A stretch of DNA of 64,000 nucleotides, from the NCBI GenBank assembly GCA_973895155.1, contig OZ316894.1:5790944-5854943 (forward strand), read 5' to 3'. The position numbers and the translations under genes were made by a program. Origin of the DNA: Marsupella aquatica. Its lineage: Eukaryota; Plantae; Marchantiophyta. Below the pieces are notes generated by a model. That model searched no databases and was not told where the DNA came from. It saw nothing but the letters and a program-made list of their open reading frames with translations. Below are positions 20,885 to 64,000 of this stretch, one piece after another. Each line of letters begins with the position of its first letter. Position 1 is the first letter of the stretch.

Positions 20885-21438
20885 CTCGGGGGGTTGACTA
20901 TCAAAAATCTTAGGAACCACGTGCAATCCAAAATAGGTATTTTTCATAGAAATGAGCTAAATTTTTTAAAAGCGTAGGAAGAAAAAGAAGGTATTATAGA
21001 CCAATATTTATAGAATATTCTCTAATATATACTTTTTATAAAGTAAAATGGGTCATTAATATTGAAAATAAAGAATGTTTTTGGAATATTCCCATTATAA
21101 AATATGTGTGTTTATATTAGGCTAGGATCGCAGTGGTACCCCAAAATATACACTAGGCCTCATTCACAATTGGAGGACCCAAAAGGAACATCACACTCAG
21201 AAGTGACCATAGTTCATTATGCTTTAGGACATCATTTGTAAGGTGTAATGAGATGATATGCAAAATTTGATGTACTATACTTAATAAACATCCTGTAGGT
21301 TGGTAACATTAATTAAACTATCTAGCATTTGAGACTTTGAAGCTTTCCTTATATGTCCTTCAAAGATCGATAAAGGACTTGTCACGCAACGAGTCACATC
21401 ATTTCAGGACTCGAAAGGACTCTAAAACTTGCATTTTA

Positions 21439-21782
21439 TGTTAGATATTGCTCTAGTCTTGTGACTCTTGTGCTAACCACAGTTAGGCTAACTCGGGTTA
21501 GGACCTAGCTAAGGTTAGCGGTAGTGCTGTTGTGCATATAGCCAGGGCTGATGCCAGACCCTGGTGGAACTTAGGCTCATTGTTATGGAGCTAGTTGAGA
21601 GATAGGGAGAGCTTGTGCTGTGGATGCTTGGTATGGCCGGTCGGCCTAGAGTGCAGTAAAGCTCTTGTGTGTTCCCGTGGGCGTAGCCTCATGTGGAGGT
21701 GAACCACGTATCTCTCTGGGTCGACTATTGTGCGTTGGATGGTTCATGGGCTTGCCGTTGCGAATGTCGTCTATGCTCAACA
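21439..21782 (+). repeat. 5' LTR (344 bp)
   Basis: TGTTAG...TCAACA; 7 mismatches to the 3' LTR by eye (~2%). Confidence 0.97.
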
Positions 21783-21784
21783 AC

Positions 21785-21796
21785 TGGTATCAGAGC
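21785..21796 (+). promoter_or_regulatory. Primer-binding site (tRNA-iMet)
   Basis: TGGTATCAGAGC, 2 nt after the LTR. Confidence 0.95.
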
Positions 21797-26200: not shown

Positions 26201-28209
26201 AAGGTGTGAAGGGTTATAGGTTATGGGATCCAGTAACTTGTAAGCTAATTGTCAGTAGAGATGTGTCCTTTAATGAGTCCAGATCATCAAAGGAGGGGGA
26301 GAGTTCTCAGGACTCCCATACTGACAAGGGGAAATCTCCCATCCCGGACCGAGTTGAAGGGGAGATTAATCATGATGATGTTCATGACGGGAGAGATGGA
26401 GAAGCTCCGGGCTTGGAGCTGGTTCCTTTGATGGAACAAGAGGAGCAGATTGTTGCTGGGGTACCTCAAATTCAACCAGCAGCAGCAACAGATCAGCCTG
26501 AGTCATCTACTAGAAGAACTTCCAGTCGTTCTACTAGAGCTCCTACCAGGTATGGTCAATGGGCAGACTCATCTAAGCTAGATGATATTGACATTGCACC
26601 TGATGAAGATGATATGGCTTTGATCTTGGAAGAAGGAGAGCCTTCTTCGTATAGTGAGGCTTGTGCTTCAGAGCAGAAGCATGAGTGGAATGCAGCAATG
26701 CCGAGAGAGTTGCAATCTTTGAGTGACAACAAGACATGGGAGCTGGTGGAGCTTCCAAGAGGTCAACAAGTGGTGGACAGCAAGTGGATTTACAAGTTGA
26801 AGGACAGTCCTTCAGAGGGTGGAGATAAGATCTACAAGGCAAGGCTTGTTGCCAAGGGGTTCACTCAGGAGAAAGGAGTGGATTACAATGAGGTCTTTTC
26901 ACCGGTGGCTAAGTATTCCACAATTCGGATCTTGTGTCAACTTGTTGTGTTTTTTAATCTGGTGATGGATCAGATGGATGTTGTTACTGCTTTTCTCTAT
27001 GGCAACTTGGAAGAGATGATCTTCATGAGACAGCCACTAGGCTTTATGAAGAAGGGCCAAGAGAACTTAGTTTGCAGATTGCTCAAATCCTTGTATGGAT
27101 TGAAGCAGTCTCCCAGACAGTGGAACAAGCGGTTTGATGATTTCATGCTTGTTCAAGGTTTTACAAGGATGGTGTATGATCCTTGTGTGTATACGAAATC
27201 AGTCAAGAATGATGTATTTGGTTTCATCATTCTGGTGATCTATGTGGATGACATGCTAATTGTGGCTAAAGATCAATCTAAGGTTGACAGTCTCAAGGCA
27301 AAATTGAGCGCTGAATTCAGGATGAAGGATCTTGGTAAGGCCAAGAGGATCTTAGGGATGGAGATTTTTAGGAACTCTGAGACTGGACAGTTGTGCTTGA
27401 GTCAAGGCCAGTATGCGAGGAAAGTACTTGCACAATTCAACATGGAGAACTGTAAGCCAGTGAGTATTCCTTTAGCTTCACATTTCAAGTTATCATCGGC
27501 TTTCTCTCCTACGGATGCTGTGGAGAAAGGTCTGATGGCTAAGATTCCTTATGAGAAGGCAGTAGGCAGTCTGATGTATTTGATGACTTGTACTAGGCCT
27601 GACTTGGCCCTAGCGATGGGCAAGGTTAGCAGATTCATGTCAAATCCAGGGAAGGTACATTGGGAAGCTGTGAAATGGATTCTCAGGTATGTGAAGGGAA
27701 CACAGGACTATGGATTACTATTTGATAACAGATCAACTAGAACGTTAGTTGGCTATGTAGATTCTGACTATGGAGGCTGTCTGGATACAAGGAGATCTAC
27801 AACTGGGTTTGTATACACTCTTGGAGGAGGATGTATCAGTTGAAAATCTACCTTGCAGAAGTGCATATCTCAGTCTACTTCAGAAGCAGAGTATGTTGCA
27901 GCAGCAGAAGCTGCAAAGGAAGCAATTTGGTTGGATAAGTTGATCGCGGAGATGGGTTTAGAGCATGGAAAAATGACTCTAAACTGTGGTAGTCAGAGTG
28001 CTCTTCACTTGGCTGCTAATCAGGTGATGGATAGCAGGGTGAAGCACATTGATATCAGGTACCATTTTATCAGGCAAGCAGTGTCTGATAAAACTTTTGA
28101 GCTAGTCAAGATTGATGGAAAGCTCAATCCCGCTGATGCCTTTACCAAAGTGATTCTTTTGGAGAGTTTCTCAAAATACCGTGCTACTTTGCAGGTTTTG
28201 CAGTTGTAG
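23293..28209 (+). pseudogene. Copia gag-pol polyprotein, disrupted by a frameshift (~23630), stops (24348, 25260, 27843) and a MITE
   Basis: Gag KFEVEKYDG and zinc knuckle CWNCGKPGQMKRDC; protease WILDSACTFH; integrase LWHFRLGH..CEHC..VHSDVWGP..LRSDNGGEY; RT YKARLVAKGF, LYGLKQSPRQW, YVDDML; RNase H YVDSDY, SEAEY, KHIDIRYHFIR. Confidence 0.95.
25482..26119 (-). mobile_element. MITE copy 2 (638 bp), inserted in the copia integrase C-terminal region in opposite orientation to copy 1
   Basis: TIR GGCCTCATT(T/C)ACAATTGG; ATGC duplicated; removal restores the copia frame IFGCDAYVL. Confidence 0.95.
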
Positions 28210-28405
28210 TGCAAGTAGAGTTATTTAGCAATGTGTGACTATTTGTATATGGATTACTCATTCCTGTTAGGCTACGGCTTAGTTCTAGTTAACCCTTAGT
28301 TAACCCTTGTGGTTTTTAGGGGGAGACCTGGTTTGGTGATTGTCTAGAACTTCCTGTTGAGGATTCCATATGGTAGCATTTAGTCCAGTCCCCAAGACAA
28401 GAGTC

Positions 28406-28414
28406 AAGGGGGAG
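28406..28414 (+). promoter_or_regulatory. Polypurine tract
   Basis: AAGGGGGAG, 2 nt before the 3' LTR. Confidence 0.85.
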
Positions 28415-28416
28415 TT

Positions 28417-28760
28417 TGTTAGATATTGCTCTAGTCTTGTGACTCTTGTGCTAACCACAGTTAGGCTAACTCGGGTTAGGACCTAGCTAAGGTTAGCAGT
28501 AGTGCTGTTGTGCATATAACCAGGGCTGATGCCAGACCCTGGTGGAACTTAGGCTCATTGTTACGGAGCTAGTTGAGAGATAGGGAGAGCTTGTGTTGTG
28601 GATGCTTGGTATGGCCGGTCGGCCTAGAGTGTAGTAAAGCTCTTGTGTGTTCCCGTGGACGTAGCCTCATGTGGAGGTGAACCACGTATCTCTCTGTGTC
28701 GACTATTGTGCGTTGGATGGTTCATGGGCTTGCCGTTGCGAATGTCGTCTATGCTCAACA
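28417..28760 (+). repeat. 3' LTR (344 bp)
   Basis: Direct repeat of 21439-21782, followed by TTTTA. Confidence 0.97.
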
Positions 28761-29146
28761 TTTTAGACAATGAAATTTTACCAAGGCATGCATACTAATA
28801 GAATAATCTTATATTTTAAAACTCAAATATTGACACACACTAAACCTTTATGTACAGGACAAAAATAATCAATAATTTTGGCTTATTAAGGGCCATCAAT
28901 AATAGGATCCCTTAAAAAAGTTAAAAACTTGATTTATCTACATGATGAGGTAGGTTACACCATGTAAAATAGTCTTGTGAAAAAATTAGACTTAAATGTC
29001 TTGAGATAAAATCATGATGAAGCTTTTTCCATGTTACGAAAGTCATTTTTCACTAAAAAAGCATGTTTTTGAGTCCTGAAAGTGGTTCCTGTGAGGTACA
29101 CCCAATTGTGAATGAGGCCACTAAGTTAACCCCTCGAGTATGACTC

Positions 29147-34669: not shown

Positions 34670-35570
34670 GAGCCGGACGATATGTACTAGTTTGTACAGG
34701 GTTGAAATCTTGCTTTGACGCTGTGCTTCAGCTGTTGAACACTTGAACCACCAGAACCTCGATGGAAATCATACTAGACGTCCTGCAGTTTGCAACTCTT
34801 GATTACAGTTTTCTCTTGCCATTTCATCTGGATCAAGTAAACTCTTACGTTATGCACGATATCTACTGAGCACTGTGGCTCCTGCCGAAGCTACTGTAAG
34901 TCGTACGTACCTTAATTTCACACTCAAGAAGAAGTGAATCAGTCTGTGTGAGTCGCATGCTTTTGCCATGCATCCGTGCCTGCTCAGTTAACAACGAGGA
35001 CCCTCGCTTTTCAAGAATACACATTTTCGACATACATATTGTCATATTGGTTGCAACGAGTCATTTCCATTTTCTTACATAATTAGTTGTACTTTGTTTC
35101 GTTTACTAGCTGCTATAGAACTTTGATCGGGCGCACATGTTTGTGGACGGTGCCAGGCCGAGATTAGCTCCAGATAAGGATTGACCAGAATGTTGAATTG
35201 TCTGCAATTGAGGATGTGCAGGCTGATTGTTGACCGTCCCAAGTTCAGAATTCTTGATCGGGATAGGAGCAAGAGAGCTAATTCAGCTGTATGTTTATGA
35301 AAGAATAGGGTCTTGGGGAAGGCAATGCATGATATATACCAGAGTGAAATCGAACGCTGCTGCAGCCCGAAAGATTGATTTCGTTGTCTGTCTCCCCTCG
35401 CCGTCCGAATTTTTCGTGATGGGTAGCTCGTATCCTGGAATTCGGCCTGTTCAAGACGACAATGTCAAAATTCTAAAAGGCCAGGATTGCTCTGATTGAT
35501 TCGTTCCTGATTGCACTACCTAGCATGAAACGGCCCGGAGCTGAAGCACACGGCATCGCATTCATCGGAA

Positions 35571-38500
35571 ATGAAAACTTCCAAGTACTTCAAAACAACG
35601 ACGACGTGGAATTGGAAAGCCATGTCCCGAAGCCGCAGAAACGTAATAGCCGGGGTCACGACGAAGTTGGATTACATTGCGTTCTCCCTCATAATGCTGT
35701 CTGGAATGTCGGGGTTGATAATCATGCTGTACAATGTCGCCTGTCACGGTTCTTCAAGTTTTGTGTGCAAAAGTCCTGACTGGGACAAGCAGAGAGGAAT
35801 GTGGATGGATCGGCACCCAACTCTGAGGCCACTCGAGGGCCAGCGGCCCAGAATTATGATGGTCACAGGTTCCTCTTCCCAACCGCGTGAGTCTGCAGTC
35901 TTGAATCGTGCTATTCTGCAGTCTGCAAAGAACAAAGTCGACTACTGTAGGTTGCATGACATTCCGCTCTACTACAGCACGGGTAACCCAGCTCGAAATG
36001 AAGAATTCAATGTCCGGTTCAGAGGTGACTGGTGGGTGACACTTCCTTTAATTCGGATGCTCATGCTCCAACATCCAGAGGTAAGCGACTGTAGCTTTCC
36101 AAGCATCATAGATCTGCCAAAGTATCTCACATTGATGCTTGCAATTGTGACCCTGCATATACTTCATCAATTCAGAGATTCGCATTTAATTTGTTAGAAG
36201 GCTTCGTCAATAAGATGAGTCGCTATATGTATCTCCAACAGAAGCTGAATTCTCTTCTGCATATTTACTAATGTCACCATTGTGATTGACTGTTGGCTAG
36301 GTATGATCATCATATATAGATCTGAACCAGAATTTACGTAATACCATTAAGGAGGTGGTCTAAGAATAACGAATTCAATCGAGATCCAGGGCTGTGTACG
36401 AAAAGTACAGTCGAAGTAGACTTGGACGTTGACCCTGCCAAATGGTTAGAACTCAATGTGGCGCTTAATTGTGGCAATGTAGAATCCTAGATTACAAGAT
36501 TCTTGTGCCACTCGCTAATATTCAAGGAGATCTTGAATTGATACCTTGTAAGTCCATGCATCTGATGTGGATTCTGATCCCAGTGCTTGATTCCGTTGCT
36601 TGATCAAATTTCGAGCCACCAAAAATGTGACTGGTCCCAGCTTAAATATTGGAAGTGTAAATCACGACTGAGGTTTCGTTTCAGATGTTAATCGAGGGCG
36701 CGAAGCCGTCATTCGTGTCTGCTTATTTGATGATATTCTTACTGCTTCCGACTCATCAACTCGAGCTGGACATCCTAAATGATCTCTGTTAAATTGTCGG
36801 TCAGGTGGAGTGGATGTGGTGGGTAGATGTAGACGCAGTGTTCACGGACATGTCTTTGGAGCCCCCATTTGCAGCCATCAAGCACCACAACTTGGTGTTA
36901 TTTCGCGAAAACCGCAGCGTCGTCAAGACGAATATCCACACTGGGAACTACCTGATCCGAAATTGCCAGTGGACTTTGGATCTCATTCGATTGTGGGAGA
37001 CCGCCAGCAGTACTACGAAGGCGGGTGATCATCATTTGTCCTCGTCAGCGAATGAATTTGCTGCTGCAAGGAAATTACCGAAAACATTTGACGCTCGCAA
37101 GTTGATGGTGACATCTCTAGTAGCTTATCCTCAGGATGATGCGGCCCACAAGGTAATAGAGACGGAGAGCTGGATAATTGTTGCACCTCATCTAGAGGAA
37201 CTGCAAGGGAACCTGCAGCAGAAGGAGGATCATGGCAAATTGCCTCTGGTGACACACTTTGCGGGCTGCATTCCATGCGGTACCTGCCCTCCCAACCATG
37301 GACAGCCAAAGGCGCCATTAACGGAGGAGCAACAGTCTCAGTACGTCTGCCTAGAGCAACTGGATCGCACATTTGACTTCGCAGACAACCAGGTATGGTA
37401 ATCACGGGATGCTGCAAGCAAAATTCGAGGTTTCTTAAGTTTCCCGAGTAGGTCCTGATCACCCATGCACAACTTTCATTTAGCTGTTGAACTCCAAAGC
37501 TCATCATAAGCGAGATAATTTATATATCCTGAAGCTGTGCCAGAAAGCAGAAAATTTCAGCTTTCACAGAGGATCTCACGCCAGTTTCATGGTCACCAAT
37601 CGCAGGACATTTCAATGATGAGTATATATATCTAGAATTCATTGGTACCAGGGTATACTCACTAGGGGTGGTTTGCATTGTACATTCTCTATCCAGATCT
37701 ATGGTCATTACGGCTTCCAACGACGTGCTCTAGGCAGCTCAAAGATGGAACCCTTTCAGAGCGTGGATGTGACGGAGGATAGGGCTGCAACAGATCATAG
37801 CCTAGAAGAGTTCAGCATGCTGCCCAAGATGATCCTCTGGGATGAGCTACGAAGTGCGCACAACGAAAAATCCGCTGTGGCTGGCACGACAGAAGAAGTG
37901 ATTCTCGTCAGCGGCTCATCTCCAGAACCCTGTCATCGAGCCGTCGGGGATCAAATTCTGGTCAGGTACGAGACTACACACAGTAAAACTGCTGCTGCTG
38001 TAGCGATTCAGGCAGCCACATCTTTTATGAACCTTCCAAATTTATCATACGTGAGCTGAATCTGTCTTCACACATGTGGTGGTCCATCTTACGATTACAT
38101 TAAAGTTCGTTCTACTACCGATATTCAGAATCGATGACTAAAATCTAGAGATTCTACTTTTTTGGAGAATTCGATCTGATCTAATTGAGATAAGTTGTAC
38201 AGTGCTATTGTGATTGGGATTTGAGATTGTTATATAAGGTTTGTCAGGGATTTATTTTAGCTTTCATAGTCCGTGGGCCTTGGGTTGGAGATTCACAGGG
38301 GATTGAAGAACAAAATCGATTACTGCCGTTTGCATGGAATCGAGATCTTCTACAACATGGCTGCGATAGCCAAGCACTTCACGGGTTGGTGATCTCAATG
38401 ACACATCTCTCTTCTTAAGTAGCCCATCACTACATCGAGAGTGGCCTACATCGATAATGGATGCGGCTTGTAGACTTCTTAAGTAGCCCATCACTTGACG

Positions 38501-40699
38501 TTAGGGATATATTTCCAACGTAGTTACCCCCTGGTACATGATAACCCCGTGCAAATTAGCTACAAGAAGGATTTTATTGTCTGTGTTTCCTGAATTGGAT
38601 GTACTCCTCTTTCCTCCCTTGATGGTTTAGGACCAATCGTTGACTTGCCTCCAGAAAATTAGAGAACTGACAGTACCTTAAGGTCGGTTAGCCCATCTAA
38701 CGGGAGAGCCAATACAACGACATTTAGCAAGGTATCAAATGGAATTTTCTGGCTCTTCGTCATGGAATTGTGTCTAGACTGAAATGGAAATAAGGCATTA
38801 ATTTGTATCGTTAGCCTTAGTTCTGACAGTGTATTGATTAACGTACTTTTTGCTTTAATTTATTTCTGTCTACTAATTCCTGACATTCAACTCATAGCAT
38901 GTTATCTACCAAAGCCTTGGCAAATCGCCTCAATTACAAAGCCACGTGTACTACTTAAAACCAAAACAAATTATCATGTACTCTAAACTTGTTGGGGAGT
39001 TTGAGAGTCTGGATTGATAGTTTGTTGAAATCAAGGGCTGCAAAACAAAATTGGTTGTTTGGTTTCAGGGTGGTGGTCTAAGCTTCCCTTGCTGAGGATG
39101 CTGATGCTTAAAAATCCAGGCGTAGAGTGGCTGTGGTGGATGGATAGCGATGCCGTGGTCACTGACATGGACTTTGAAATCCCGTTTAAAAGGTGTTTCC
39201 TTACTCTGACTTGTACTTTATGATTGCGAAGTCTCGATCAAAATTTCAAGATTTGTACACGGTATTTAATGTATCAGATTCAAAATTAGAGCACCGAACT
39301 GCCATCGCCATAGGAAAATGTTTCGAATGAAAGATCTTCCTCTAGTTGGTCTTAATGAAGTCTCCACTGGCAGTACACATTTTGTTGGACATCCACTTAT
39401 CGACAATCTTGCAAAAGATCTACGGAGATCTTTCAAAGAAAATAACCGATCCAAAAATGAAACAAAACCGGACAATTGATCAATTCGTTACAAGTTAATA
39501 CAGTAAGTTCTCTTACTACAATCATCATAGCGATGTCGGGACAATTAATCCCGTTTTCGAATCTTGGCTTTGCGGAGAAGAGTCTTAAGATGGAACCACA
39601 GAACCACCAATTACTTTCTGAGATAACTTTTTTGGTACCAGCTCTTGTTAAACTCCTCATGAGCTCCATTTGCAAAATAATGGAGAAATAGCAGAGAGAC
39701 TAATTTGAAGAACAACAAACGCTTTTCCAACCTTGTTTCTTGGCATCTTTGGTCATCCGATAGAACGCTTTTTGAGATTCTTGTAAACGAAGTACCCTCT
39801 TCCTTAAGTGGCGACTGTGCATATTTCTCCAAATAATCCGCTGTTAGTTGGTCACTCCTTTTCAAGCAAAGCCGAAATCTCGATTTCGTTGAAGTGACAA
39901 ACAATTCTGAATTCGATTGCTGAATTTTGCGGCTTGCATTAATTACTCAGCTATTCTGGAGAACCATTAGGAATGTACCTGAATGGTAGCTCTACTGCTC
40001 GAAGCTTTACGTCACTACCCGGACAGCTCAGCTTGGGACAATGAATATATATTGCTTTTCTGGCTCACATTGAATGATGCTTACCAAGTTGTAAGCTAGA
40101 TTGGAATTTGGATGTATGCTTGCAGCAGGTACAATGTTGACGGTGGCTACAACCTTGTAATATACGGGAACGAAAGTCTCTTGTACGACGAAAGGAGCTC
40201 TAAGGCGATCGACACCAGCAATTTTTTTATCAGAAACTGTCAATGGTCCATTGACCTCTTAGACAGGTGGGCTTCTTATGCTACCACCCCTGAGCTTAGA
40301 GAGAAGAATGAACAGGTTATCTCTACTTTTCTGAAGGACAGACAGCCGAATTGGGAGGCTGACGATCAATCTGTTCTAGTGTACATGCTCATCACTGAAG
40401 GGAAGAGGTGGTCAAGTAAAGTGCTATTGGAGAACACTGAGTTGGACATGAGTGGAAACTGGGAGTATTGGACTCCCAGATTTGGGGACAATGTGCCCCT
40501 TTTGTACAAACCTTTTGTGACCCATTTTGAAGGCTGCAAGCCTTGTGGAAAGCAAGTGAACGAGAAGTGTTTGACAGAGATGGACAGGACTTTTGATTTC
40601 GCCGACAATCAGGTTCTCGAATCAGCTGGGGTTTGTCATGAACACCTCGGATCTTCAAATATTGTTAGTTCTTGTAGCATACGACCAGAAATCAAGTGA
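35571..40699 (+). CDS. GT34 glycosyltransferase (xyloglucan xylosyltransferase / galactomannan galactosyltransferase family) with two tandem catalytic domains, ~715 aa; exons 35571-36080, 36805-37392, 37697-37965, 38299-38384, 39069-39192, 40129-40699
   Basis: N-terminal TM, then two sets of motifs: KNKVDYCRLH/KNKIDYCRLH, LPLIRMLMLQHPEVEWMWWVDVDA/LPLLRMLMLKNPGVEWLWWMDSDA, IRNCQW, VTHFxGCxPCG, DRTFDFADNQ. All introns are GT-AG and the 2148 nt are in frame. Start could be 35622. Confidence 0.88.
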
Positions 40700-46112: not shown

Positions 46113-48337
46113 CTAGTCCCATGGGTCTGTTGAGACGAAAGTTTGAGTCACTTGTCTCTGGTGAGGGATTTGTTGAGTTAGTTCCTTCCGATAAATATCC
46201 AGGGGAGTGTTCATCCTAGGCTCTACCCAAGAAAATGCATTCTCCAATGAATGGATCATTTTCATGGACTCCCCAGACTGAATGTTATTGCCGAAGTTAC
46301 TTCCCACAAATTGGGATCCTGATTGACAAGGGTTGATAATGCAGCTCACATAATCGAGAGCTCCCCTCGTGGACAGTTGATCCTGGACAAAGAAGTTCTG
46401 CAGTTCCGAAGGGTACATATCACTTGGTATATGTGATCGTTGTGGAAGGACGGTGCGTCTGACTGAGGAGGTGTCTTGAAGCAATTCCTGCATATTATTG
46501 GCAATTGTCGTTGGCCAGGTTGCCGTGGTTTGTTCCTGCTTCAGCTGCTGCTGTGGCTGCTGTACATGTGTAGCTGCTGCTGCGTATCCTCTAGAAGACA
46601 AGAAAGTGGGCGGTATATCCTGCGTTGTACGCTGCATTGAGCCCTCAACGTCCAAATCCTCCGACGTTGTGTCACTCCTCTCCTGAGAACTGGTATCATG
46701 GTCCAATTCAGGACTGGATATACATTCGGACCCTGGCATCACAAAATTGGGTGGAGAAGCGCCGATCAGAAATTGGTGGGGTTCCGTTATCTCCCATTGC
46801 TGACATGGCGGTGAGTGCCGCTGTGCAAGAGTACTTTTTTTGAAAATCTTGCACACAGCCCAAGTGTCCTGGACAAACATAGTCATGCCACAAGCCTCGT
46901 AAGATAATATACTGAAACATTTTCGATTACTCACATCGAATACATATATTCAAATCATCGAATCACTAAAGCTCCATCATTAATACTGGATATCTCGTAA
47001 TTCTGCTGCATCCCAAACCTGGAAGGATTGCTCTCCTGATGCCGTGCACCAACTTACTGGAGAAAATCCCACCTCAGCCGCCTGCATATATGGTTTCCTT
47101 GGATCTTTCAGAGGCAGACTGTAAAGGTCATGAAGCTGGGGTTTGGTATCCCATTTCAGTTGTCCCGGCCGGCATTGCTGTTGCGGAATGCATGCCTTAA
47201 CGTACATGAATTGCCCCACAATCCTAGGGTAGGAAGTTGTCTCATTTTCAACTAGTAGGAAAATCTTCTCATCAATATATTATACAAACCCAATTAAATC
47301 TATTTCTCGGTTTGCAAAGTGAAACTGCCTTCTCTTTGCCCCGAATTTCGACTAGCAGAAATATCTTGGCTGAGCTTGTCCTTTCTGGTAGGCTAAGTGT
47401 TCTCCCTTATCTACACCGGCAGAGACGGAAAGGGAAAAGAAATAAGGCAGTAAGTACAACAAAACAGCTTTGAAATTAACTACAAAAATTTTAAACACTC
47501 TCGTTTCTCAAACGGCCTGACACTGAAAACACTGTGTGGTAAAGACCTCACTTGCTGCACAGCGATCTCATCGCCTTGGACTCGACCGAGAGTGGAAGCT
47601 TCTGACGATGCTGGCATGCGGAACTCGTGCATCATCCAGTCGGTTTTAGTGCTCTTGGCTGCACGACCCGTGTAGAAGACCAACGACTTCTTCAGCCCGA
47701 TGCATTTCTTCGCATCGCTAGAGTAAATGGGCCTGTCTGTGCCTGTGGCCTTCCAAAAACCTGCGCCTGTCACTCGATTCGGTCGAGTGCTGTTCCTGTA
47801 CTTCCGATCTCTTGGGCAGAAGAAATACCACTCTTTCTCACCCTTCAGCGCAGACATATCTGCAGATTGATCGAAGAACAACGTAAGGGAGGGAATAAGA
47901 GTGCGCTGCGAAAGACTTTCTGCACTAATAAACCCAGAAAACATTATAACATTAAGCATTATGATAGCAGCGGAAGCGGAGCAACATGCTAGCTAATCAG
48001 GTCTTATTGTTTCCTGTGAAAGACTAGGGATAAACTTTAGATACGAAGGAACACAAATTGTTGCGTGTAATTATGTGGAAAACCCACTTGGAAGATCCCA
48101 GGGGTCGAACTTGTAGATGTCAAGCTGAGTGATGACGTCCACTGCAGGAGGTCTGTGCACAACCTGGCGACGCAGATAGTAGCCAACAAGTTCCTCATCG
48201 GTAGGATGGAACCGGAATCCAGGCATCACGCCGGCTCCTTGCCCTTGTCCTTGTTGCTGCTGCTGTGACCGCTGATCCATGACTTCAGCGTTACTATTGC
48301 CGCTACTATGATTGATAGGTGCCGTACTCACAAACAT
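46113..48337 (-). CDS. NAC transcription factor, FEZ/ANAC009-like, ~437 aa; exons 48337-48088, 47859-47552, 46868-46113
   Basis: [89 protein letters not shown]. Typical 3-exon NAC structure. Start could be 48280. Confidence 0.93.
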
Positions 48338-52248: not shown

Positions 52249-55200
52249 TAAGGTGTGGTTCTCTTCATGAACTACTCAATGTTTGTCTGAGGATAATTTA
52301 AAGCTTATACTCCTGGTACCCCTAGTGTTCATACTACTGCGGGTACTACTGATGATGTTGGAGAAGTGCGTGAAACTACTCAGTGCTTTGACAGGCTACA
52401 CTTATTAATATGTGCACATTACCTGACAGCACATATCTAGCAAAGAAGTGCAAATCAATCTCTCATTCAGTTATTGCAGTTATTTCCTATGATTGCACTT
52501 ATAGTGCGCCAGTGCACATCGTGCATAAGATCATGGTCAACGCTTCTCCACATGAGGATGCACTGGCTGCAAAACAATCAAAATTGTAAAGGTGTTAATC
52601 CATTTTGGCAAGTACTTTGGACTTTCTGTGTCAATCCATCCCAACTTTGGAATCCATCTGGGCTTCACAGGAAACCCCTCAGTCCATCCGGCTTTATATT
52701 CCAGTACCCACAACCTGTTAGAGGCCAGGATATATGGGTGCATTATGCAACTGGAGAGAGTTGTTGAGATTGGTGGGATATTAATTTACTCATGCCATCC
52801 TTCTATGAGACTCAGATTACTCATGGTAGCTATAGAATCAACAACAAACAATGCAACACATATTTGGGACGTCTACATGTGGACTATAAACACGTTTGTG
52901 CAAGAAACGAAGCTGCAGCATACCAAAGAAAAGTATTAAAATTTATTGAAGTTGTGAACTAACCATACAGTCATACCAAACAGTACGTCCCCAGTATTCT
53001 TTTGAGAGTCCCATGTAAGATTTCAAATTTTCTTAAGGGATGCTACACCAAATCAGCAAGAGGATCAAGTGATATGCTAATTAAACGTTGTCCAAATTAA
53101 TGCTCACTCAGCATATGATTGTCTGTTCTAACTCTAGTTTATTTAAGAATAAGAAGATTTTTCTGAAAAAACAACAAACTTAAACAAACCCCTAAGACAA
53201 ATTAGGCATTCAATTAACAGCCAACCCTGAGTTTCATGAGTTTATAATCTTTTGGCCTCAATGAAAGGTAAACTCTTTTGTAAACTCTTTTGTCACTCTA
53301 TTCATTAAAAGTGTATTTTTTGGCTGATTTTTAGGCCCCTAAATGTTCATTTTTTAGTTGCTAAATGTACTTACAGTCACCTTTTTACACTAAAATGTAC
53401 ACTATAGACAGTGAAATACCCTAATTTAAACCTAAATGGTTAACTGTAATTTGAGGGGGCAAAACTAAGGATCTTTACTAGAAGGCATCTAGTAAAGAGT
53501 CTAGTCCTAGCTCATTTACGAAAGATGAACATGAAAGAATGTCTAAATATGGCCATGACCTTTTTTGCTTGCCCGAATGTACATTTTTCGAAAGCGGAAA
53601 GTACACTTTATATTGCACTGTAAAGGTTCATAAACCATTCAATAATGATTCACTTTTGATGAATAGATGGAATTTTTGTCAACCCACCCAGTTAAGTGTT
53701 AACAAAGATAAGACCCTACCAAAATCTTGTATCCATGCCTAAAAGGCTACTATCAACCAAGGAGTACTTCGAAAGATATCAAGATTCACTTGATTAAAAT
53801 GTAGGTACTGGTTTGGAATCCTGCCAAATATTTATTATTTATTTCAATTGACTCTGTAGCACCGATCCCTTGCCTAGCATCACTGCACCTGAAGCAATTC
53901 AATATACCATCCTGCGGGGAATAAAACTTACTAGTAAAGTAGTAAATTTTTTACGGTCATTCCCCAACGTCCAATTGAAAGCTTTAAAAAAAGGCTTAAT
54001 TTTAAGTAAATTAAAGTAAGGAAGTTGACGCTCAAATGGATCACCCACATTTTACGTCAGTTAGGACTTATTACTTGAAACTTATTCCTTCATAGTCTTA
54101 CTCATATTTATTAGATTAGTTCTAGGGCCCAGTTAGTAATTGCCTTAATAGTGTCTTGACATATCCTTGTATTCACCCTGGGTACACAACTGCCCATCTC
54201 ATATGACATTAAAAGTTTTTAAATCTTGACAATGGATTTCTATGTCTTTCCATTTTAGTTACTATAGAAATTGGGAACCCAATTTCTATGTCTTTTTAAA
54301 TTATAAATATTTTCAATTATATAATTTTGAAAATTTTATTTTCAAAGTTTCTCTGCAAAAACATTTACAGAATATTTTTAATGTCATACTGAAGAACCCA
54401 GCTTTTATTGGAATAGACTTCTAACTAAGGCTATATAATAATGTAGACCCCTGGTTGCTTTCATTAAAGTTGCTTACCTAGTAGAATATTGTTTTACTTG
54501 ACTTAAAGAACCCCAGAAATCAAAAGGATGGTGCCCTGGTTACGTATCTTTGTTTAAAGATACTATACGATTAATTTTCAACAATCCTCCATGGATTAAG
54601 GAAATAATATAGCATGTTCATGCCTCTTTTTTTCTCTTTTTTTGTCTTGTAGTGATATGTAATTCATTTAATTTATTTTATCACTGCAACACTACCGACC
54701 CCTTTTGCGAACCCCGTCCCATCGCAACTAACAAAGGACCAAATTATGAAATTCCGGCATTTGCGAAACGCTACGCATCGCAACCCTTTCGCATTCTTTG
54801 AAACCCACAGCTTCGCAATCGGACTTTCGCAACCCCTTCGCAACACCTTCGCACACTGCGAAACTTATTTTATCGCACATAAATCACATTTATGCGATCT
54901 CGACAGACTCTTTATCGGTTTGCGACGCGCTCTGAACTATAACTTATTTGCGAAGCTGTTGTCTTGACAATTCCTTTGCCATTCATATGGTATCGCATAA
55001 CTGCGTCAGTCAGGGTGTCGCACAATTGCGGAACCAAAAGTATCGCAATGTTCCAATACTCAATGTATGGCAAGTTTGCGATAGTATGGCGTTCGCATGT
55101 GTTTCGCAAGGATAGTTTGAGGGCTGGGTTTTGTATATTTGGGTTCATAATTGGGTTGGGGTCTTATTGCTCCACATGAAGATACCAAAGCAAAACTTTA

Positions 55201-55326: not shown

Positions 55327-57380
55327 CTAGAATGGAGCCCGCCTACTCCTCTTTGCTGGCCTCTTCCCCTTGTCCTTCTTGCTTTGGGCGGGACGAGCTG
55401 GACGGGAGGGGGGTGGTGGCGGTGGTGGCGGTGGTGGTGGTGCCTGCTGCTCCTCCCCATCTGGCTCATCCTCATCATCTTCATCATCCTCATCATCATC
55501 CTCCTGGTCTCCTGGTGTGCTAGGTGTGGCAGCACTCCCTGCCCCTCTGGACCCACTCGTGGTGGCCCCGGTAGTGTCCCCATCATCAGCGCCGCTATCC
55601 TCCTCACTGCTATCCTCACTCCCCTCCTGCTCCTCCTTATCCTACTTCCATGTCACAAGGTTAATTCGGGTTTAGGGTTAATAGGAAAAATGTATAAACC
55701 TTATAAATGGAATGGGTGCGGGTTTAGAAAGGGTACTACAAATCACTCACACTAGCCAACTCTGCATCAACCAACTCAAAGAGATGTCTGGCCCCATGCT
55801 CTGCCCCTATCTCCATCTCCTTTGTTGTTATCTTGCGGCGGTACCTCTTATACTACCACAAAAAAATGAAACACCAAAACATAAGGGGCCCGGGTTAGTA
55901 ACTAAGGGTACTTAAGCAAAAAAGGAATCCTAAAAAGGATAAAAAGGGTACCCTAACCAGAAAAAAACCCCATTACCCTAACAAACATTTGTCACTCGAC
56001 ACTAAATGTTTTTCAAAATGAAACAAGCTTTGCAAAACTCCCACCTTCGCAAATTCAAATATATTTAAGTTTGCGAAATAGACTGCGAATCGGATTGCTT
56101 CGCAATGGCTTCGCAAACCTTACGGGAAAAAGGTTATAATAGAGTTTGCAAAACAATTGCGAGGCAACCCGCTTCGCAATTGTTTCGCAAACTGTGCTTT
56201 TAAAAAAATCCGAGAAATGGCTAAGGCACGCAATGTGTCAGGGTGACCTAAAACGAAAGGGGAGGCCATAAGGGGTAAAGCAGAGGTCTGCGAGGGGCAT
56301 TGCAGGCAAGCAAACAACAATTGAAGGCAAAGGAAAAGAAGCAGGGGAGGAGGGGAGAGGACTCACGAAGGTTGCTTTCAGGCCAGGAAGTCCACCTTGC
56401 CCCATCTTGTGTGTGGTCTTGGGGCGTTTGCTGACTCGGTTTGCTGCAAGGATGAACTTCTGGGGTGGTGTCCCCACTTCATCCACGATGTGCTGAGAGA
56501 CCTTCTCAGCCAATGCCTTGAGGTCTTTGTCTGACTTCCCGGCCTGAAGTGCCTTGGCCTCCTTCTCCTTCCAGAATTGGAGGTCCTTGGCTGCTTTCAG
56601 CTGCACCTCGACCTTATAGAACGCGTTCCACACATCCTCTGTGAATTGCACTGGCCTCCTCACGTTCCTGTACTCCTGCAAGCTTGCCAGGTAGGCCCTC
56701 ACCTTCCTCCTATCATGGTATCGTGCTTGAGACATTGAATTCGAAATTCTATCTGCAAGCCACTGGTCATCAATCTCTGCTCCATTTCTGAATGAATCTT
56801 TGACCTGAGTCATTACTTTCCTCTGCTCTGATCTGCTTAGTTTCCCCCAATCAACACCTCGTGCAAAGCTAGTCCTCACAGCAAGCCTGATAGTGCTCTT
56901 TGCCCCAGTGTAGGCCAACTCAGTAGGAATGCCCTCAACCAAGGCAATCAATGGCAGCTTCTTCCTCTCTTCCTCCTTTTTCCGCTGCGCCTCATGTTGT
57001 GCTCGAATCTCATCTCGTTCCTCCCTTCTCCTCTTCTTTTCGAGGGCTGCAGGAGAGAGTACTCCTGCCTTAGCCCTCTCCTCCTTCTTTCATTTCTTCT
57101 CTCTGGCCTTCTCCTCAGCTGCAGCCTTTGCCTCTTTCTCCCTCTGAGCCTGCCCTGCTGCAACCCCGGTTTGCAAAGCTTGCCCTAGAATTGCACTCAA
57201 AGAAGCAATCCCAGCTGGTGTACTCAAATCCAAATGGCTCAGCTGTGTGGCATTGAGATGCTCGGCCATCAAATTCGTCCATTGATTACTCTCCTCATTC
57301 CTGTTCCCTCCATTGCCATTGCCACTCCCACTCCCACTTGCCCCTGCCCCATCCCCTCCACGCCCTCCACTAGAATCCAT
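55327..57380 (-). pseudogene. TnpA-like (ORF2) protein of the CACTA element, ~476 aa; exons 57380-56367, 55852-55751, 55641-55327; one in-frame TGA at 57090-57092
   Basis: The 57380 and 56951 ORFs share a frame. It has a coiled coil, W..L....RK..M, EDVWNAF and HKMGQGG motifs reminiscent of Ptta/En-Spm TnpA, phase-0 GT-AG introns, and an acidic / poly-Pro / basic NLS-like tail. Confidence 0.7.
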
Positions 57381-58746
57381 AGCTATCCAACACCAAGCGC
57401 GCGCAAGCTCTCCTCCTGCCCTCCCTCACTTCAAAAAACGTCGAATGGGCCTCGTAACCCGGCGGGAAGGTCCAAATGCCCAGACAAAACACATTTGCGA
57501 CGCAGTCTGAATCGCAATTTGCGAATCAGCCCGCTTCGCAACTAGTATCTCAACTTTCCAAAACCAATGCGAAACCACACGCTTCACAAAGCCTTTGCAA
57601 AGCTGTAGAGACACGAAAAAACGCTCTCGGGCTCTGTTTTTCCGAAGCTGTTGCGAAACATTTTGCTTCGCAAATAATGTGACCAAATTCTGAAGCAGGT
57701 TGCGAAGCAGGTCGGTTCTCAATATCGTGGCAATTCCTGGCGAATTTTTTTTTCACATTCTTTCCCTCCTCCTTTTGTTTAGGCCATGTAAGTTATACTA
57801 TGCCCTTTTGTGTAATTAAGAAATTCCGCCGTTTCAAATCTCGGCGTTTGTTAGGGTTGGGTCTTGGATGAAGCTGGTTTTTTTAGGGGTTAAAAGCGAG
57901 ATTACCAGTCAAACCTTCCGTTTTTTAAGCTATACATGGTGTGGGTGTAGGCTAATTTTGATAAGAGTTGGGTTTTGGTTTAAAATTAATAAGTGAGGAA
58001 AGGGTTTAGGATTAAAGTTGGGTTTGGGTTTAGGGTTTAAGTCTTTAATTTTGGGTTTAAGCAGGGTTTGCATTTATGGTTGTAGGCTTTTAGGGTTCAA
58101 GCAAGGGTTTAGGGTTTAAAACAAAAGAGAGGAAGGGGATTGGGAGTGAGGGTCTAGGTTTTTGTAATAGGTCAGAGGTTTGGGGGTGAGGGTTTGGAAA
58201 AGGCAAAGCAAGGTTAGATGAGATTAATGTTTTAGTTGTTTTACCATGGGTTTTATGGGTTTTAATGGGTTTTATGGATCTTTTGGGTTTTAATGGTTTT
58301 TCCATGGGTTTTATGCTAACAAAGGAGGAGGAGCTATAACAACTTGCAGGGTGCGGCACTTTTGCATGAATTGATACTAGCTAATGCGTATGCATCGTGA
58401 GAGCCCGGGCATCTGGAGGTACGGACTAAAATAGATGGGTCTAGTTAGGCTTATTCATGTAATTAAAATTTTTGGTTCCCACTATCTATAAAGAGGACAT
58501 GTATGTAAGGTGTTCGCTTTGTGTACTTGCAACTTTTCTCATACTTCCAGATTCGGTTCATTATTTTAGAGCCACAAGACCTATTGGCACCGCTGAGCCT
58601 GGGTCTCAGAAAGGTATTTTTTAGTGTTCCTTTTGTGTTTGGTTTCATGTCATCATTACTTGAGAACTTACATTTGTCCAGCTTGATATTGTGATGTTAT
58701 TTGGTAATAACCCCTAACTTGCAAATTATACATCTTTGTAGGGGCA

Positions 58747-59897
58747 ATGTCTTCATCTTTTGAGATCTCCACCATAGATTCTTCCTCCTCCGATGAAGAT
58801 ATACCACCTCCTCCTCAACCTCACACGACTGCACCTCCTCCTCGTGGTCCACCCCGTCAGCTTTGCCAATGTGCCAAATGCGTGGGTCAGGTTTCCCAAA
58901 AGTCCTATATATGCACCCAGCATATTGAGAGATATGGACGTTACGTACGTCATACAACAGGGGCTTCCTCATCCCATGTGGTAAGTGTTTACGCCTTAGT
59001 TTCTACCCTATTTCCACATCGCAATGGTGAAGGTTTTTAATTTCACACCTCTTGTTGTTTGTTTTGGTTTGGGTGCAATAGGTATCTAGTAGGCCTAGAC
59101 CTGCGGCATCAGCACCTTATGTCCCATCACAAGGTGTTCTAGATGCTATAGGCAATGCATTCTCACAAGCCTTGGGTCTAGCAACAGCCCCCTCCAGTCC
59201 TAGGGCAGTTGGGGGTGTGCCTGTTGTCCCAAGAGGGAGAAAGCATTCCAAGAGATGGCCCCGAGGGGATACTGATTTGTACAAGGCAGTGGTTACCGGT
59301 AGGTGGGGTGATTGTGAGTTTACTGGCAGATGTGTTCCTATCATCAAGGACTGGGATCCCCAGACTCTTGGTTTGCCACAAGAGCTTTCCTATGGTGAGG
59401 AGGTAGAGGTTTGGGGAAGACGTTGGGTTATCAAACCTTCCACACTTGGGGATAGACATGGCTATGGAGTTTTTGCTTGTGAAGACATCATTGTGGATAC
59501 CGAGAGTGGTAGTGGTGGACGCGGTCGAGAAGGACCTACATTGTTTCCTTATGGTGGACCCATCTACAAGAGAAGACATTGGAACATGATCCTTGCACAA
59601 CATCCTGAGTGGAAGACTTATGCCTTGGAGTTAGATACTTTTGATGGAAACACTAGGAGGTATAGTGAGCAGCGGGTGATAGATGGGGACCCCATACAAA
59701 CTGGGAATATAGCTGGTTTCATAAATAGTACTGTGGGGACTCGCCCCAAGCGTAGGAAAAATTGTGAGTGGGTTTTCATTCAGGGTCCTCCACCAGCCCC
59801 TTATGGCCAGACATATCATCATGACCATTGTCTGGTTGTAGCTACTAGGACCATTCACTCAGGTGATGAGTTGTTTACTCACTATGTGTGGGATTAG
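58747..59897 (+). CDS. SET-domain (lysine methyltransferase-like) protein inside the CACTA element, 349 aa; exons 58747-58980 and 59082-59897
   Basis: IKPSTLGDRHGYGVFACEDI, LFPYGG, YALE, VIDG, GNIAGFINS, NCEWV, VVATRTIHSGDELFTHY in SET order. Phase-0 intron gtaagt...caatag; no stops or frameshifts. Confidence 0.82.
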
Positions 59898-60040
59898 AAA
59901 ATGACCATACACATGGCGTTTGGCCACATTTTGTATTTACACCAGTACCGATATTATTTCATGTTTGCACACCCCCATATATTCTTCTACATGTTGTAAC
60001 TATTTGCTTTGTAACTTTCAATTGTTTGCATTGTTTTTAG

Positions 60041-63000
60041 AATGTGCGACCCTCTCAAAATATGTTACCGCGGAGATTGAGAGCAGCATATCGGGAAATG
60101 GGTATGCCGGAAGAAGGACAAGGCTCTGAGTCACATTCCTCATCAAGTGACAGTGGAAGCAACAACCCTGATCGCAATGTACCCAGAACATATGAACAGG
60201 TTATTGATGACCAAGATAGAGCCATGGATGATTTTATGGTTGATTGGTTTAGTGTTGACGTCCCTGGTGATGATGTTGAGGTGTCTGCTGATCAAGGAGG
60301 TCATGTGCCCCCCAATGATCCACGACCAAGACATACCCCCGAGGGACAGCGCCAATGGGAGGAAGCAGAGGAACATGCCCGAACTCCTATCTATGAGGGT
60401 GCTCGTTTGAGTCATCTTTCTGCTATCTTGGGGTTGATGAATCTACAGGCCAAACACAAGGCAAGCAATGCCTTGTTATCTGATATGTTTGCACTTTGCC
60501 ATGACCTTATGTTACCTTCTGGCAATGTGTTGCCAGGAACTTGGAAGGAGGCCAAGCGTGTTCTCTCATCAATTGGCATGGAATATCATATCATTCATGC
60601 ATGTGTGAATGATTGCATGACTGTTATTTCATGGGGCCGATGAGAAGAAGACACAGTGTACTGAATGTCATGAGCCACGGTATGACCCCAACATGATTAC
60701 AAAGAAGGTGCCAAGAAAAGCTGTTCGTTGGTTTCCCATCATTCCTCGGTTGTTGCACATGTACAGGTGTTCTGATTTGGCAGAGTTGATGGTATGGCAT
60801 AAGACTCATCGATCAGAGCCTGGTGTTATGCGGTTGCCAATTGACTCTCCTGCAGTCAAACATATTGAGGAAACATGGCCAGACTTTGCACATGATCCTC
60901 GTCATGTGAGGTTGGGATTGGCATCTGATGGGGTTAGTCCTCATGCCCTTGGAGGCAAGGGAAGACCTACATCAGTTTGGCATGTGGTTGTGATGAATTA
61001 CAACCTTCCACCATGGCTATCCATGAAGAAGGGGTTCCTCTTGCTGTCTTTGATTATTCCAGGTCCAAAAAAGGTGAAGAACTTTGGCACTTATTTGGCA
61101 CTATTGATTGGAGAACTCCAAAAACTGTGGGGTGGAGTGTGGGCATATGATGGCAGGAAAAATACAGGAGGCATTCCACGTGTATTTAAATTGAGAGGGG
61201 TCGTTTGTTGGACAATGCATGACTATCCTGGTAAGATGACTTTTTGACCATATGCCACCCTTCTTTGATATGCTCTTTAATATACTTGTTTGTCATGTGA
61301 CAACCCTAACATTTAGTCTGGTTTTATTTTTGGTGTAACCAGGGTTTGGCTTTGTCTCTGGATTGCAAACTCAGGGGTACAAAGCTTGCTCCACCTGTGG
61401 TCCACAATTGCAAGATATGGCAATTTGGTCCCCATGGCTTAGGAAGATTGTTTACATTGGGCATACAAAGTTTCTTCCGATGGGGCATGAGATGAGGTCT
61501 GACCCACTTTTATTTTCCTCCTTTGACATGCCCCTTGGTGATATGCGGGAAATTCCGGAACCAACAACTTTTGGGCATTGGAAGTCACTAGCTGATAGGG
61601 TGGCAGACCCTGATGATCCCCTCACCTTTGATGGTACTGGGTTGACGAGGTGGAGTATACTAGCCAGTTTGCCCTATTGGTCAGAGTTGAAGATCCGCCA
61701 TCTTTTAGACCCCATGCACATAGAGGCAAATGTGGGGAAGGCGTTGATAGCTCATTTTTATGGGGAGAAGGACACTAACTTCAGGGAGGCATGTGAAGAG
61801 TTGGAAATGCATCCAGATGTATGGGTACAAGTTGATCCTGCCACAGGTTTGGAACATCGTCCTTCTGCTCCTTGGGTGCTTAGTGTTGGCCAAAGACGTG
61901 AATTCCGGAATCGTATAGGGGAGATGCGGTTTCCTACAGGCTATGGTGCCAATTTGAGGAAAGCTTTTGGGATAGAGGACAATCACAAATGGCCACGGTA
62001 TCTCAAGACACATGACTATCACCGCTTATTGCAGCATATATTGCCAGTGGCAATTATAGGGTTGGGGACCAAAGAAGTGCAAGATGCCATTTGGTCATTG
62101 GGTCGTTTGTTGAGATGGATATGCTCAAAGGAGATATATGTGGAAGAGATTCCTGGAATGGAGGTATTGGCTGCTGAGGTGGTTTGCAAGTTGGAGAAGG
62201 CCCTCCCTCCTTCCTTATTTGATTGTCAGGTTCATTTACTTGTGCATCTTGTGAGGGAGGTTGCCATTGCTGGTCCAGTTCATTGTCGATGGATGTACTG
62301 GCTTGAGCGTTACATGTCAGTCTTGAAGGCTTATGTACGTAACCGTGCACGAGTGGAGGGAAGCATAGCTACAGGATACTTGGCTGCAGAGAGCATGTTT
62401 TATTGTTGTAACATCTTGGCCACCATTGATCGGACTTTACCACGTACTTGGATGGAGGAGAGGCAAGAGGAGGAGGACCATTTAACAGGAGCAACAAAAA
62501 CACGCATGCTTACATCAACAGAGTGGACACAGTTGAATACATTCATGTTGAGTAATAGCAATGTCATGGATGAATGGAGGGAGTTTTATGACAATGCCAA
62601 AAGAATGAGTCAAAGGGCAAGGATTTTTCCTAAGTTGCATGAGTTTATGAAGGAAAAGTTGGTTGAGTTGGATGGCATTTTGGCACAAGGAGGAGATGTC
62701 TCACAGTTTCCTACTATGACAAATGACATTCGGACCATTGTTCATGGCCCTTTGAGAGTGGTAACATCCAAGACGGCCATGTGGACCCAAGGGAGACACT
62801 TCAGGTTTCACTAGTTCCTAACCTTGTTTTCCATGTTCATGTACTACTACTTAAGATATAGTAATCATTTTACTTAAGATAAGTGTGTTTTTCTCTTTTG
62901 GTATGAAAGGTTCCTCATAACATGATTAGTGTTTTTTGTGTAGTAGTAACAATATATGGGTCTTGTTAATTTCAGGATTTCTTCCCTTGATGAGAAGAGG

Positions 63001-63453
63001 GCTCGTACTTTTGATTGTGGAGTTCAAGGGCAGTTTTGTCAGGACTCCCGGAGTAGCCGACATGACAGGAACATTGTTCGTGATGTTGTGCCACACTATG
63101 GAAAGATTTTGGTGGTCTCATATGACAACCAATCTAAGTTTGAGGAGTATGTCTTCAAGTGCAAGTGGTTCAAAGTGAACCTTGTTGGTAATAATCGCAC
63201 TGTACTCCAAGATGAGAGTGGGTTTACACGGTTGAGGATAAGTGCCACTAGTTTTCAAGCATCTCATTGGCAAACGTCAGAGCCATTTAGTTTCCCATCT
63301 CACTTGGAGCAATGTTTCTACGTTCCATACCCCTTAGACCCAGAGTGGTCACTTGTCATCACATATGTGCCACGGTCTCGTTCCATTGTTTCAGACAAGC
63401 CAGACACTATTTTTGTGTCAGATGTAGAGGACATTGAAGGTGACCAAGTGTGA
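60041..63453 (+). pseudogene. CACTA TnpD transposase; exons (58747-58980), 60041-61230, 61343-62804, 62976-63453; one frameshift at ~60620
   Basis: IHACVNDC, CTECHEPRY, FPIIPRL, DPRHVRLGLASDG, YNLPPW, HDYP, RHLLDPMHIEANV, LKTHDYH, HLLVHL, GPVHCRWMYWLERY, NRARVEGSI, FKCKWF, QCFYVPYP (Transposase_21/DUF4218/DUF4216 order). Confidence 0.93.
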
Positions 63454-64000
63454 GAGACACTTATGGATATTTAAACCAAAAATCTATATCATGGATTGTT
63501 CATGTTGTTTCTTAATTAATATTTCATACACCATTAGTGTCGTAGGTATTTTCATTTTGGACTCCTACTTTCAAAAGAGGTCATGCATATAAGTGACATG
63601 GGTACTCCCTCCCTTATCCCTCCTCCCTCTTTGAACCCAAACTCTCCTTCCTCTTCCAAAAACTCCATAGCTTTTTCTCCTCCCTCCCTCTTCGCTAAAG
63701 TCTCTCCTATTTTTAGTAAACCCTCTTTGGACTCCCTTCTTCCTCCGTCCCTCATCCACCTTCCAACTCCCTTCCTCCCTCTTTCACCTTTCACCTCCCT
63801 CCCTCCTCCTCCCCCATTCAAACTCTAACCTAGATGCACACACAAGTCTAACATAAACGTTTGCGAACTGTTTGCGAAACTAAACAAATCCCAACCAAAT
63901 CGCAATTCTGCCATTTAAACCGTTTCTCAATTATTCCATACTATACGCTTCACTATTTTGCGATATCCAGACCATCCCACCTTTACCATCCACATCGTTT

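Follow-up and report, generated by a model that had tools for sequence, protein, structure and literature searches.

Organization of the element

We describe a CACTA (En/Spm) transposon of the liverwort Marsupella aquatica in which an exon with a SET fold sits between a Cys/His exon and the exons of the transposase, TnpD. The element lies in the window, by which we mean the whole stretch of 64,000 nucleotides (nt) that was analysed (contig OZ316894.1, positions 5,790,944 to 5,854,943 of the forward strand), and its features are listed in Table 1. It has the marks of a CACTA element: CACTACCG stands at 54690, TTGCGAA-type repeats are found near both ends and internally, and the transposase exons match PF02992, PF13960 and PF13952, all above the cut-off. 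From 171 candidates, a scan of metagenomes yielded 44 loci, of which L001-L035 are Sphagnum-type copies, mostly 90–96% alike across the region; as such close kin they are counted here as one lineage. These relatives begin with CACTACAACAAC in three unrelated flanks, and CACTACAA is present in all four Sphagnum-type loci that reach the left end (flanks of 3 kinds). The right terminus of the element is beyond the window, and the sequence common to L027 and L014 stops without TAGTG.

The Cys/His exon has its coding start at ATG 58747 and, as the first-pass annotation of this DNA had claimed, it ends in phase 0 at gtaagt, while its joining to the acceptor at 59082 gives a protein of 349 amino acids (aa; 78+271, ending at 59897); both are read directly from the sequence. 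The same annotation took 58747-58980 as the first exon of the gene. The coding start stands, but an acceptor (tttgtag/GGGCAATG) is found at 58741/58742, just before the ATG, and together with the small exon candidate at 58551-58613 it suggests untranslated exons upstream. Judged from the sequence, 58747-58980 is thus probably the first coding exon rather than the first exon, and 58551-58613 is probably 5′ untranslated region (UTR). The small exon would join in frame to the ATG exon in both the window and L027, with codon-like conservation over about 10 codons, and its equivalent in Sphagnum-type copies has a stop in the same frame.

A second join had been proposed, from 58980 to 60041. Its phase-0 acceptor is present and the join is in frame, but the frame is shut by a stop at 60641-60643 after 278 aa, and 1119 aa become open only once 4 extra nt near 60618 are left out. 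Contigs lacking these 4 nt make up 58–75% of the summed depth there in all four public runs, and the transposase of the Sphagnum-type loci L011, L027 and L029 reads through in one frame. The window copy is unable to make a full transposase and does not have the intact frame of an autonomous CACTA element; since its relatives are open, the product of about 1120 aa fits the family and not the window copy. The four predicted transposase exons, including the Cys/His exon, total 3364 nt, and we take D, D and E at 60927, 61221 and 62305 to be candidate catalytic residues. Near 61940, where the exon in the window runs on without a break, the Sphagnum-type transposase (L011, L027, L029, L024) is interrupted by an additional intron of roughly 150 nt.

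Table 1. Coordinates of features in the window (position 1 is its first letter)
Feature	Position	Strand	Remarks
Left CACTA terminus CACTACCGACCCC	54690..54702	+	caa directly 5′; read from sequence
Subterminal TTGCGAA/TTCGCAA repeats	54704..55109	.	more clusters at 56029-56190, 57495-57725, 63860-63981
Acidic, Pro-rich frame	55327..55641	-	similar acidic frame in L027
Divergent conserved gene	56362..57380	-	TTGCGAA clusters on its flanks; in-frame stop at 57090-57092 in this copy
TATAAA, candidate promoter element	58487..58492	+	motif read from sequence, function presumed
Small upstream exon candidate	58551..58613	+	cag/ATT...AAG/gtattt; similar exon with donor in L001, L007, L027
Probable first coding exon (Cys/His)	58747..58980	+	234 nt, 78 aa, ATG 58747; phase-0 donor GTG/gtaagt
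Intron to SET acceptor	58981..59081	+	101 nt
SET exon	59082..59897	+	271 codons and stop; acceptor caatag/GTA
U-rich spacer	59898..60040	+	predicted SET 3′ UTR and poly(A) region; end of transposase intron in the other isoform
TnpD exon 2	60041..61230	+	acceptor tttttag/AAT, phase 0; NVRPSQN before ATG 60062
TnpD exon 3	61343..62804	+	end of PF02992, PF13960
TnpD exon 4	62976..63453	+	PF13952; stop at 63451-63453
Host-like genes	35529-37398, 40100-40696, 46116-47992, 10720-11292, 19906-20436		labels presumed (see text)

Two acceptors behind one donor

The donor at 58980 is the strongest GT between 58747 and 60020 by rough scores, for which, as for the acceptors, we used weights of our own. The gene models P0001 (Calypogeia fissa) and P0005 (Sphagnum jensenii) at the NCBI have the same junction as 58980-59082, and module and SET occur together also in gene models of Riccia sorocarpa and in one Logan open reading frame. 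The Logan protein P0134 (423 aa, on a 2141-nt contig) has the Cys/His module and SET in one frame and may stem from a spliced transcript or from an intronless form.

The start codons point the same way. In the window the lone methionine of the SET exon is residue 169, the only in-frame ATG from the donor to 59600, and since it lies after two conserved motifs, GxG (126) and YGG (157), the SET protein appears to need the upstream exon here. The Cys/His exon might instead be spliced to the transposase only, with SET made from an internal promoter and a start of its own, or hardly made at all. The Sphagnum-type SET exon indeed has a Met at codon 4, where many 263-aa database models begin, so that this lineage does not force splicing at the SET end. 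We nevertheless give this alternative little chance, given that Met169 is the sole in-frame ATG between the donor and 59600 in the window and yet the domain is under purifying selection, that the SET acceptor is in phase 0 in all three lineages described below, and that AG-bounded starts of the SET exon are visible in L038, L040 and L042.

At the far acceptor, the codons before ATG 60062 read NVRPSQN in the window, against NIRPSED in Sphagnum-type copies. The two differ at 7 bases, no second codon position among them, and the ratio of nonsynonymous to synonymous substitution rates (dN/dS) over the first 21 TnpD codons is 0.10–0.13. The spacer at 59898-60040, which fills the 143 nt from the SET stop to the TnpD acceptor, has no detectable homology to its Sphagnum-type counterpart (61 of 300 shuffles score as high). 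As codons conserved like coding sequence thus stand beside an unrelated spacer, TnpD also appears to need an upstream exon. Other subfamilies in the runs begin aligning exactly at 60038, that is, at the acceptor. A search of the spacer for a poly(A) hexamer found TGTA words only.

Conservation of both acceptors in other copies had been proposed as a check, and together with the donor they are indeed kept in phase 0 across three lineages. Among the Sphagnum-type loci the transposase starts directly behind SET in 21 of 35; the donor is a phase-0 GT in all 18 loci that cover it, the SET acceptor is AG in 19/25 (TAA in 2/25, unscored in 4/25), and the TnpD acceptor is TAG in register in 19/21, with TAA in 1/21 and a one-codon shift in 1/21. 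The third lineage, L036, is 31% identical in SET and 41–49% in TnpD; it has the module as CWCRLC-x13-H and the same order, with a phase-0 donor, tag/GTC into SET and cag/ATG into TnpD, all three in phase 0. When all AGs are ranked by the rough score, the two acceptors take places 1 and 2 of 77 in the window, 1 and 2 of 78 in L007, 1 and 3 of 66 in L029 and 1 and 2 of 60 in L036. Seven further loci (L038-L044) have SET with no detectable module or transposase in the available locus DNA.

A single fusion protein of Cys/His module, SET and TnpD, made by use of a donor inside the SET exon, is suggested by four gene models that join SET to TnpD (P0028, P0114, P0180 and P0192). The junctions of these models differ, however, and P0028, P0114 and P0192 cut SET before its terminal Tyr; the SET stop is conserved, the shared GTs near the SET end (59764 and 59863) are in phase 1 and unfit for the phase-0 acceptor, and no shared strong phase-0 donor was found inside the SET exon or the spacer. 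We find the fusion hardly credible.

The Cys/His module

The module reads LCQCAKC-x13-HIERYG in the window, one residue more between Cys and His than the x12 first reported, and has the general form CxCxxC-x13-H-x4-G. Its dN/dS against the Sphagnum type is 0.09–0.11. A likeness to PF13963, the transposase-associated domain, had been suggested for this exon. The window's own exon has no match to that profile at E up to 10; weak matches appear in L036 (E 0.022) and in the Riccia model P0196 (E 0.031), where PF13963 is the sole Pfam match of the module, and cover profile positions 32–61/64, below the cut-off. The module versions of P0001, P0005, P0037, L001, P0134, P0135, P0147 and P0165 have no match to PF13963. 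When longer proteins were sought with the 78-aa exon, none of 128 candidates reached E 0.001, though this search is insensitive and also misses the carriers P0001 and P0005. A sequence search of the PDB with the module alignment gave weak SET matches only, and Atlas gave no usable match for the exon.

These results bear on another arrangement, in which the Cys/His exon belongs to SET alone and TnpD is a separate gene with its own promoter, starting at ATG 60062. The module is present in none of seven TnpD proteins tested, the database TnpD proteins P0118-P0123 start at or after the equivalent Met, L036 has ag/ATG at its acceptor, and the accessible text of PMC13547354 describes Arabidopsis EN/SPM families with separate tandem genes. 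But P0118-P0123, from contigs in ENA, JGI and Logan, stop at the first intron and so look like single-exon calls. The acceptor and the seven codons before the ATG are conserved, only 143 nt from the SET stop, and the module resembles a transposase-associated domain. On balance a separate TnpD gene seems to us very improbable.

The SET domain

The SET exon matches PF00856 (E 5e-6, 27.3 bits against a cut-off of 22.4), and a structure model from 77 sequences has a predicted local distance difference test score (pLDDT) of 92.5; an earlier model from 14 sequences was poor (pLDDT 55.5) and was replaced by it. The model matches known SET domains (Foldseek, SETD8 at E 4e-7; VIA, Z 12.1 with a root-mean-square deviation of 2.6 over 124 residues). 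The VIA scores for SET1, EZH2, SET7/9 and SET8 are 11.6–12.1, a tie within 1 Z unit that favours no subfamily. Conservation covers the second Gly of GxG (76/76), the motif III Asn (70/77) and the terminal Tyr (63/67), so that with the YxG motif the exon has what defines the SET superfamily in profile, fold and motifs; the roles of these motifs are those we presume from other SET domains. What sets apart the canonical histone SET subfamilies (SET1, EZH2, SET2, SUV39, SET8) is lacking: the motif is NS, with Ser replacing the usual His of the NH motif in 73/77 sequences, there is no pre- or post-SET, and the protein ends three residues past the terminal Tyr with no post-SET cysteines. The top profile match in the PDB is LegAS4, a bacterial SET effector (E 1.4e-7), which has YINFS and was solved with a histone H3 peptide. 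As LegAS4 also lacks the His, the change to Ser does not imply a dead enzyme. PR domains also lack this His, and they match our model at Z of about 10–11.

We consider it likely that the domain is an active methyltransferase, the protein being a predicted lysine methyltransferase. The same isoforms could be made with a SET protein that methylates a non-histone protein (the transposase, or the accessory protein of the minus strand), or that is a dead binder or decoy. The loss of the NH His, the lack of post-SET cysteines, an identity of at most 25% to any solved SET domain with no preferred subfamily, and the want of support for DNA binding by the module would all fit such a role. We hold it to be unlikely, though it is the most serious of the alternatives, because the Gly of the S-adenosylmethionine site, the Asn and the terminal Tyr are conserved over 77 diverse sequences, because LegAS4, which has no such His either, was solved with an H3 peptide, and because PR domains give the Z scores stated above.

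Against the Sphagnum type, dN/dS is 0.20–0.23 in the SET core (dS ~0.8) and 0.12–0.16 in TnpD. A value of about 0.2 indicates purifying selection and contradicts the idea that the SET exon is a neutrally decaying fragment of a host gene, carried as in a Pack-CACTA. Capture of gene fragments is known for CACTA elements from the literature available to us, but the 319 representatives of the family at 50% clustering and the same position of the exon in lineages 31% identical also speak against decaying cargo, which we practically discount.

These 319 representatives come from a SET profile search at E 0.001, with the best 150 of them listed. Twenty proteins were looked up (19 SET profile matches and one transposase), and an organism is given for seven: Riccia sorocarpa for five, Calypogeia fissa and Ginkgo biloba for one each. 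The closest named proteins over the SET exon are from Calypogeia fissa (74%) and Sphagnum (65%). In a tree of 73 of the 77 rows (4 short rows left out) the window, Calypogeia and Sphagnum rows fall into one 13-row clade (97/95); the tree is midpoint-rooted with no outgroup, so that we claim no origin or direction from it. The Ginkgo biloba protein P0220 (Gb_21150) belongs to the SET family (E 3e-18), and in the tree it falls with L036 and L038/L039/L042 (100/97). The Calypogeia and Sphagnum proteins are 62% identical, and Calypogeia and the liverwort Riccia 43% in the SET core (P0001, P0037, P0005, P0135). Horizontal transfer is a possible cause of the likeness between Calypogeia and Sphagnum, which old paralogous families would explain equally well. 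With P0005, Atlas gave Streptophyta SET clusters and one viral cluster (0.92, 158 shared features), which is a lead only; scans of viral contigs and prokaryote genomes found no relative.

Proposed mechanism

Taken together, the evidence of start codons, pre-ATG codons, donor and PF13963 favours alternative terminal exons. We think it highly probable, judging from sequence comparison, that use of the near acceptor with a poly(A) site in the spacer gives SET, and use of 60041 gives TnpD. One promoter near 58490 would drive a transcript starting upstream of the Cys/His exon; splicing to 59082 and polyadenylation in the spacer would yield the SET mRNA, while skipping to 60041, with SET removed as part of the intron, would yield the TnpD mRNA. 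The first-pass annotation had proposed a shared exon of this kind, which finds good support in the comparison of lineages, except that the window copy itself cannot deliver the full transposase. As a whole, one unit with two phase-0 acceptors that makes either a 349-aa Cys/His-SET protein or a Cys/His-TnpD protein of about 1119 aa is the explanation we prefer, with moderate confidence. The likeliest origin of the arrangement is insertion of the SET exon into a phase-0 intron that followed the N-terminal module of the transposase itself, with the exon retained from then on.

As to function, the SET protein might methylate histones on the element's own copies and so resist silencing, being brought there by the module that it shares with the transposase; drawn by analogy, this falls somewhat short of an even chance in our estimate. 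Protection of the element's chromatin from silencing would be the most economical role, in line with VANC and TnpA as far as their available descriptions go, and guidance by the shared putative zinc module is the weakest step. More tentatively, we suggest that this is an ancient CACTA lineage, present in mosses, liverworts and perhaps gymnosperms, whose choice of terminal exon would decide between mobility and the writing of histone marks. With the same putative zinc module on both products, it would provide the first case in a land-plant transposon of a catalytic chromatin writer that addresses itself to the element.

Besides the points already set to the credit of the alternatives, several observations weigh against the preferred reading. 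The PF13963 likeness is absent from the window's exon and below the cut-off elsewhere, and the substrate cannot be read off the modelled SET fold, in which the usual His is replaced. In P0001 the first Met past the junction (113) precedes GxG (136), and L036, with its TnpD acceptor directly before the ATG, does not force splicing at the TnpD end. Within the pre-ATG codons, subfamilies that are abundant in the runs differ at a second position (60057 A>C). Support for both junctions comes from comparing sequences and from gene models whose basis is not stated, and neither the 58980-59082 nor the 58980-60041 joint is among the matches listed for contigs of four runs of undeclared kind, contigs that keep the introns. 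Finally, in the accessible part of 10.64898/2026.08.24.746577 sequence-specific binding in Spm elements is assigned to the DNA-binding domain of TnpA and not to the module discussed here.

Other features of the window

The minus-strand gene at 56362-57380 is 52–64% identical to Sphagnum-type loci over its main stretch and is a single open frame in L031; it has no Pfam match at E below 0.07, and it could be a TnpA-like accessory factor. This gene probably continues in the acidic frame at 55327-55641 as a later exon. At 54645-54654, 35 nt 5′ of the element's left end, there is another CACTA-type end (reverse complement CACTACAAGA), for which no partner was found within the window. The observed/expected ratio of CpG is 0.23–0.35 in the SET and TnpD exons (59082-62804) and 1.3 at the left end, and the depletion in the element body is consistent with past methylation. 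Elsewhere in the window, frames at 23596-27840, in a stretch (21156-29119) with repeats of about 340–360 nt, are labelled Ty1/copia-like retrotransposon from motifs that we presume to be diagnostic. The host-like genes we take to be two galactosyltransferase-like frames, a NAC-like factor, a lipid-transfer-like protein and a PIF1-helicase-like fragment.

Comparison with known systems

If the preferred reading is true, it offers a direct, testable case of a transposon that writes chromatin marks, in which a high-copy bryophyte CACTA family would use splicing to change between mobility and self-regulation. It also bears on annotation: one database cluster has 360 members, many from Sphagnum, labelled "SET domain-containing protein", and such Sphagnum entries are probably transposon products and not host chromatin genes.

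The closest parallel in gene structure is a single gene from which alternative splicing yields TnpA and TnpD, as the accessible texts describe for maize En/Spm and for Arabidopsis ATENSPM3/7 (PMC13547354; 10.64898/2026.08.24.746577; PMC1636069). As there, one transcription unit of a CACTA element is predicted here to give both the transposase and a regulator. In contrast, the second product here is not TnpA but a SET-fold enzyme; its exon precedes the catalytic ones, and it would have its N-terminal module in common with the transposase, while a possible TnpA-like gene lies on the other strand.

SET domains are known from other transposons. According to the accessible part of 10.1101/2025.02.11.637652, PAG2 of Plavaka, a member of the EnSpm superfamily in the red alga Bostrychia, has a SET domain and is proposed to modulate transcription. 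The likeness is a SET domain on an EnSpm-superfamily transposon; the difference, compared by description, is that PAG2 is an accessory gene of its own, one of three in a cassette, and also encodes an N6-adenine methylase domain, whereas here SET lies within the transposase gene of a land-plant CACTA element and PF00856 stands alone in the SET exon and in P0001 and P0005. SET domains in HarbingerS and MuDR of Phytophthora and in Helitrons are cited in PMC12730594 and 10.1101/2025.02.11.637652; these too are transposon-borne, but they belong to other superfamilies and hosts, the passages available mention no shared exon, and the transposase here is of the PF02992 type and not that of Harbinger or Mutator. 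Among minimal SET domains (SETD8, SET7/9, SET1, LegAS4 and the PR domains of PRDM proteins), ours shares the fold with GxG, YxG, motif III Asn and terminal Tyr, and differs in its identity of at most 25%, an extra N-terminal beta hairpin and inserts, the lack of pre- and post-SET zinc clusters, and no subfamily.

With VANC of the VANDAL elements and with TnpA, the SET protein would have in common that an element-encoded factor is proposed to alter the chromatin of cognate copies. In the accounts available to us, these described plant anti-silencing factors are sequence-specific binders that induce hypomethylation, and none is described as a methyltransferase; the SET protein here would be a catalytic writer with putative targeting. 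The parts of PMC4158355 and PMC11982613 that we could consult make no mention of a SET-bearing CACTA element, and in the literature searched we found no description of a land-plant CACTA element whose transposase gene contains a nested SET exon or has its first coding exon in common with one, though Repbase Reports or supplements may list such families. In conclusion, SET-carrying transposons and the alternative splicing of En/Spm are each known, and the part that appears new is the nesting of SET within the transposase gene.

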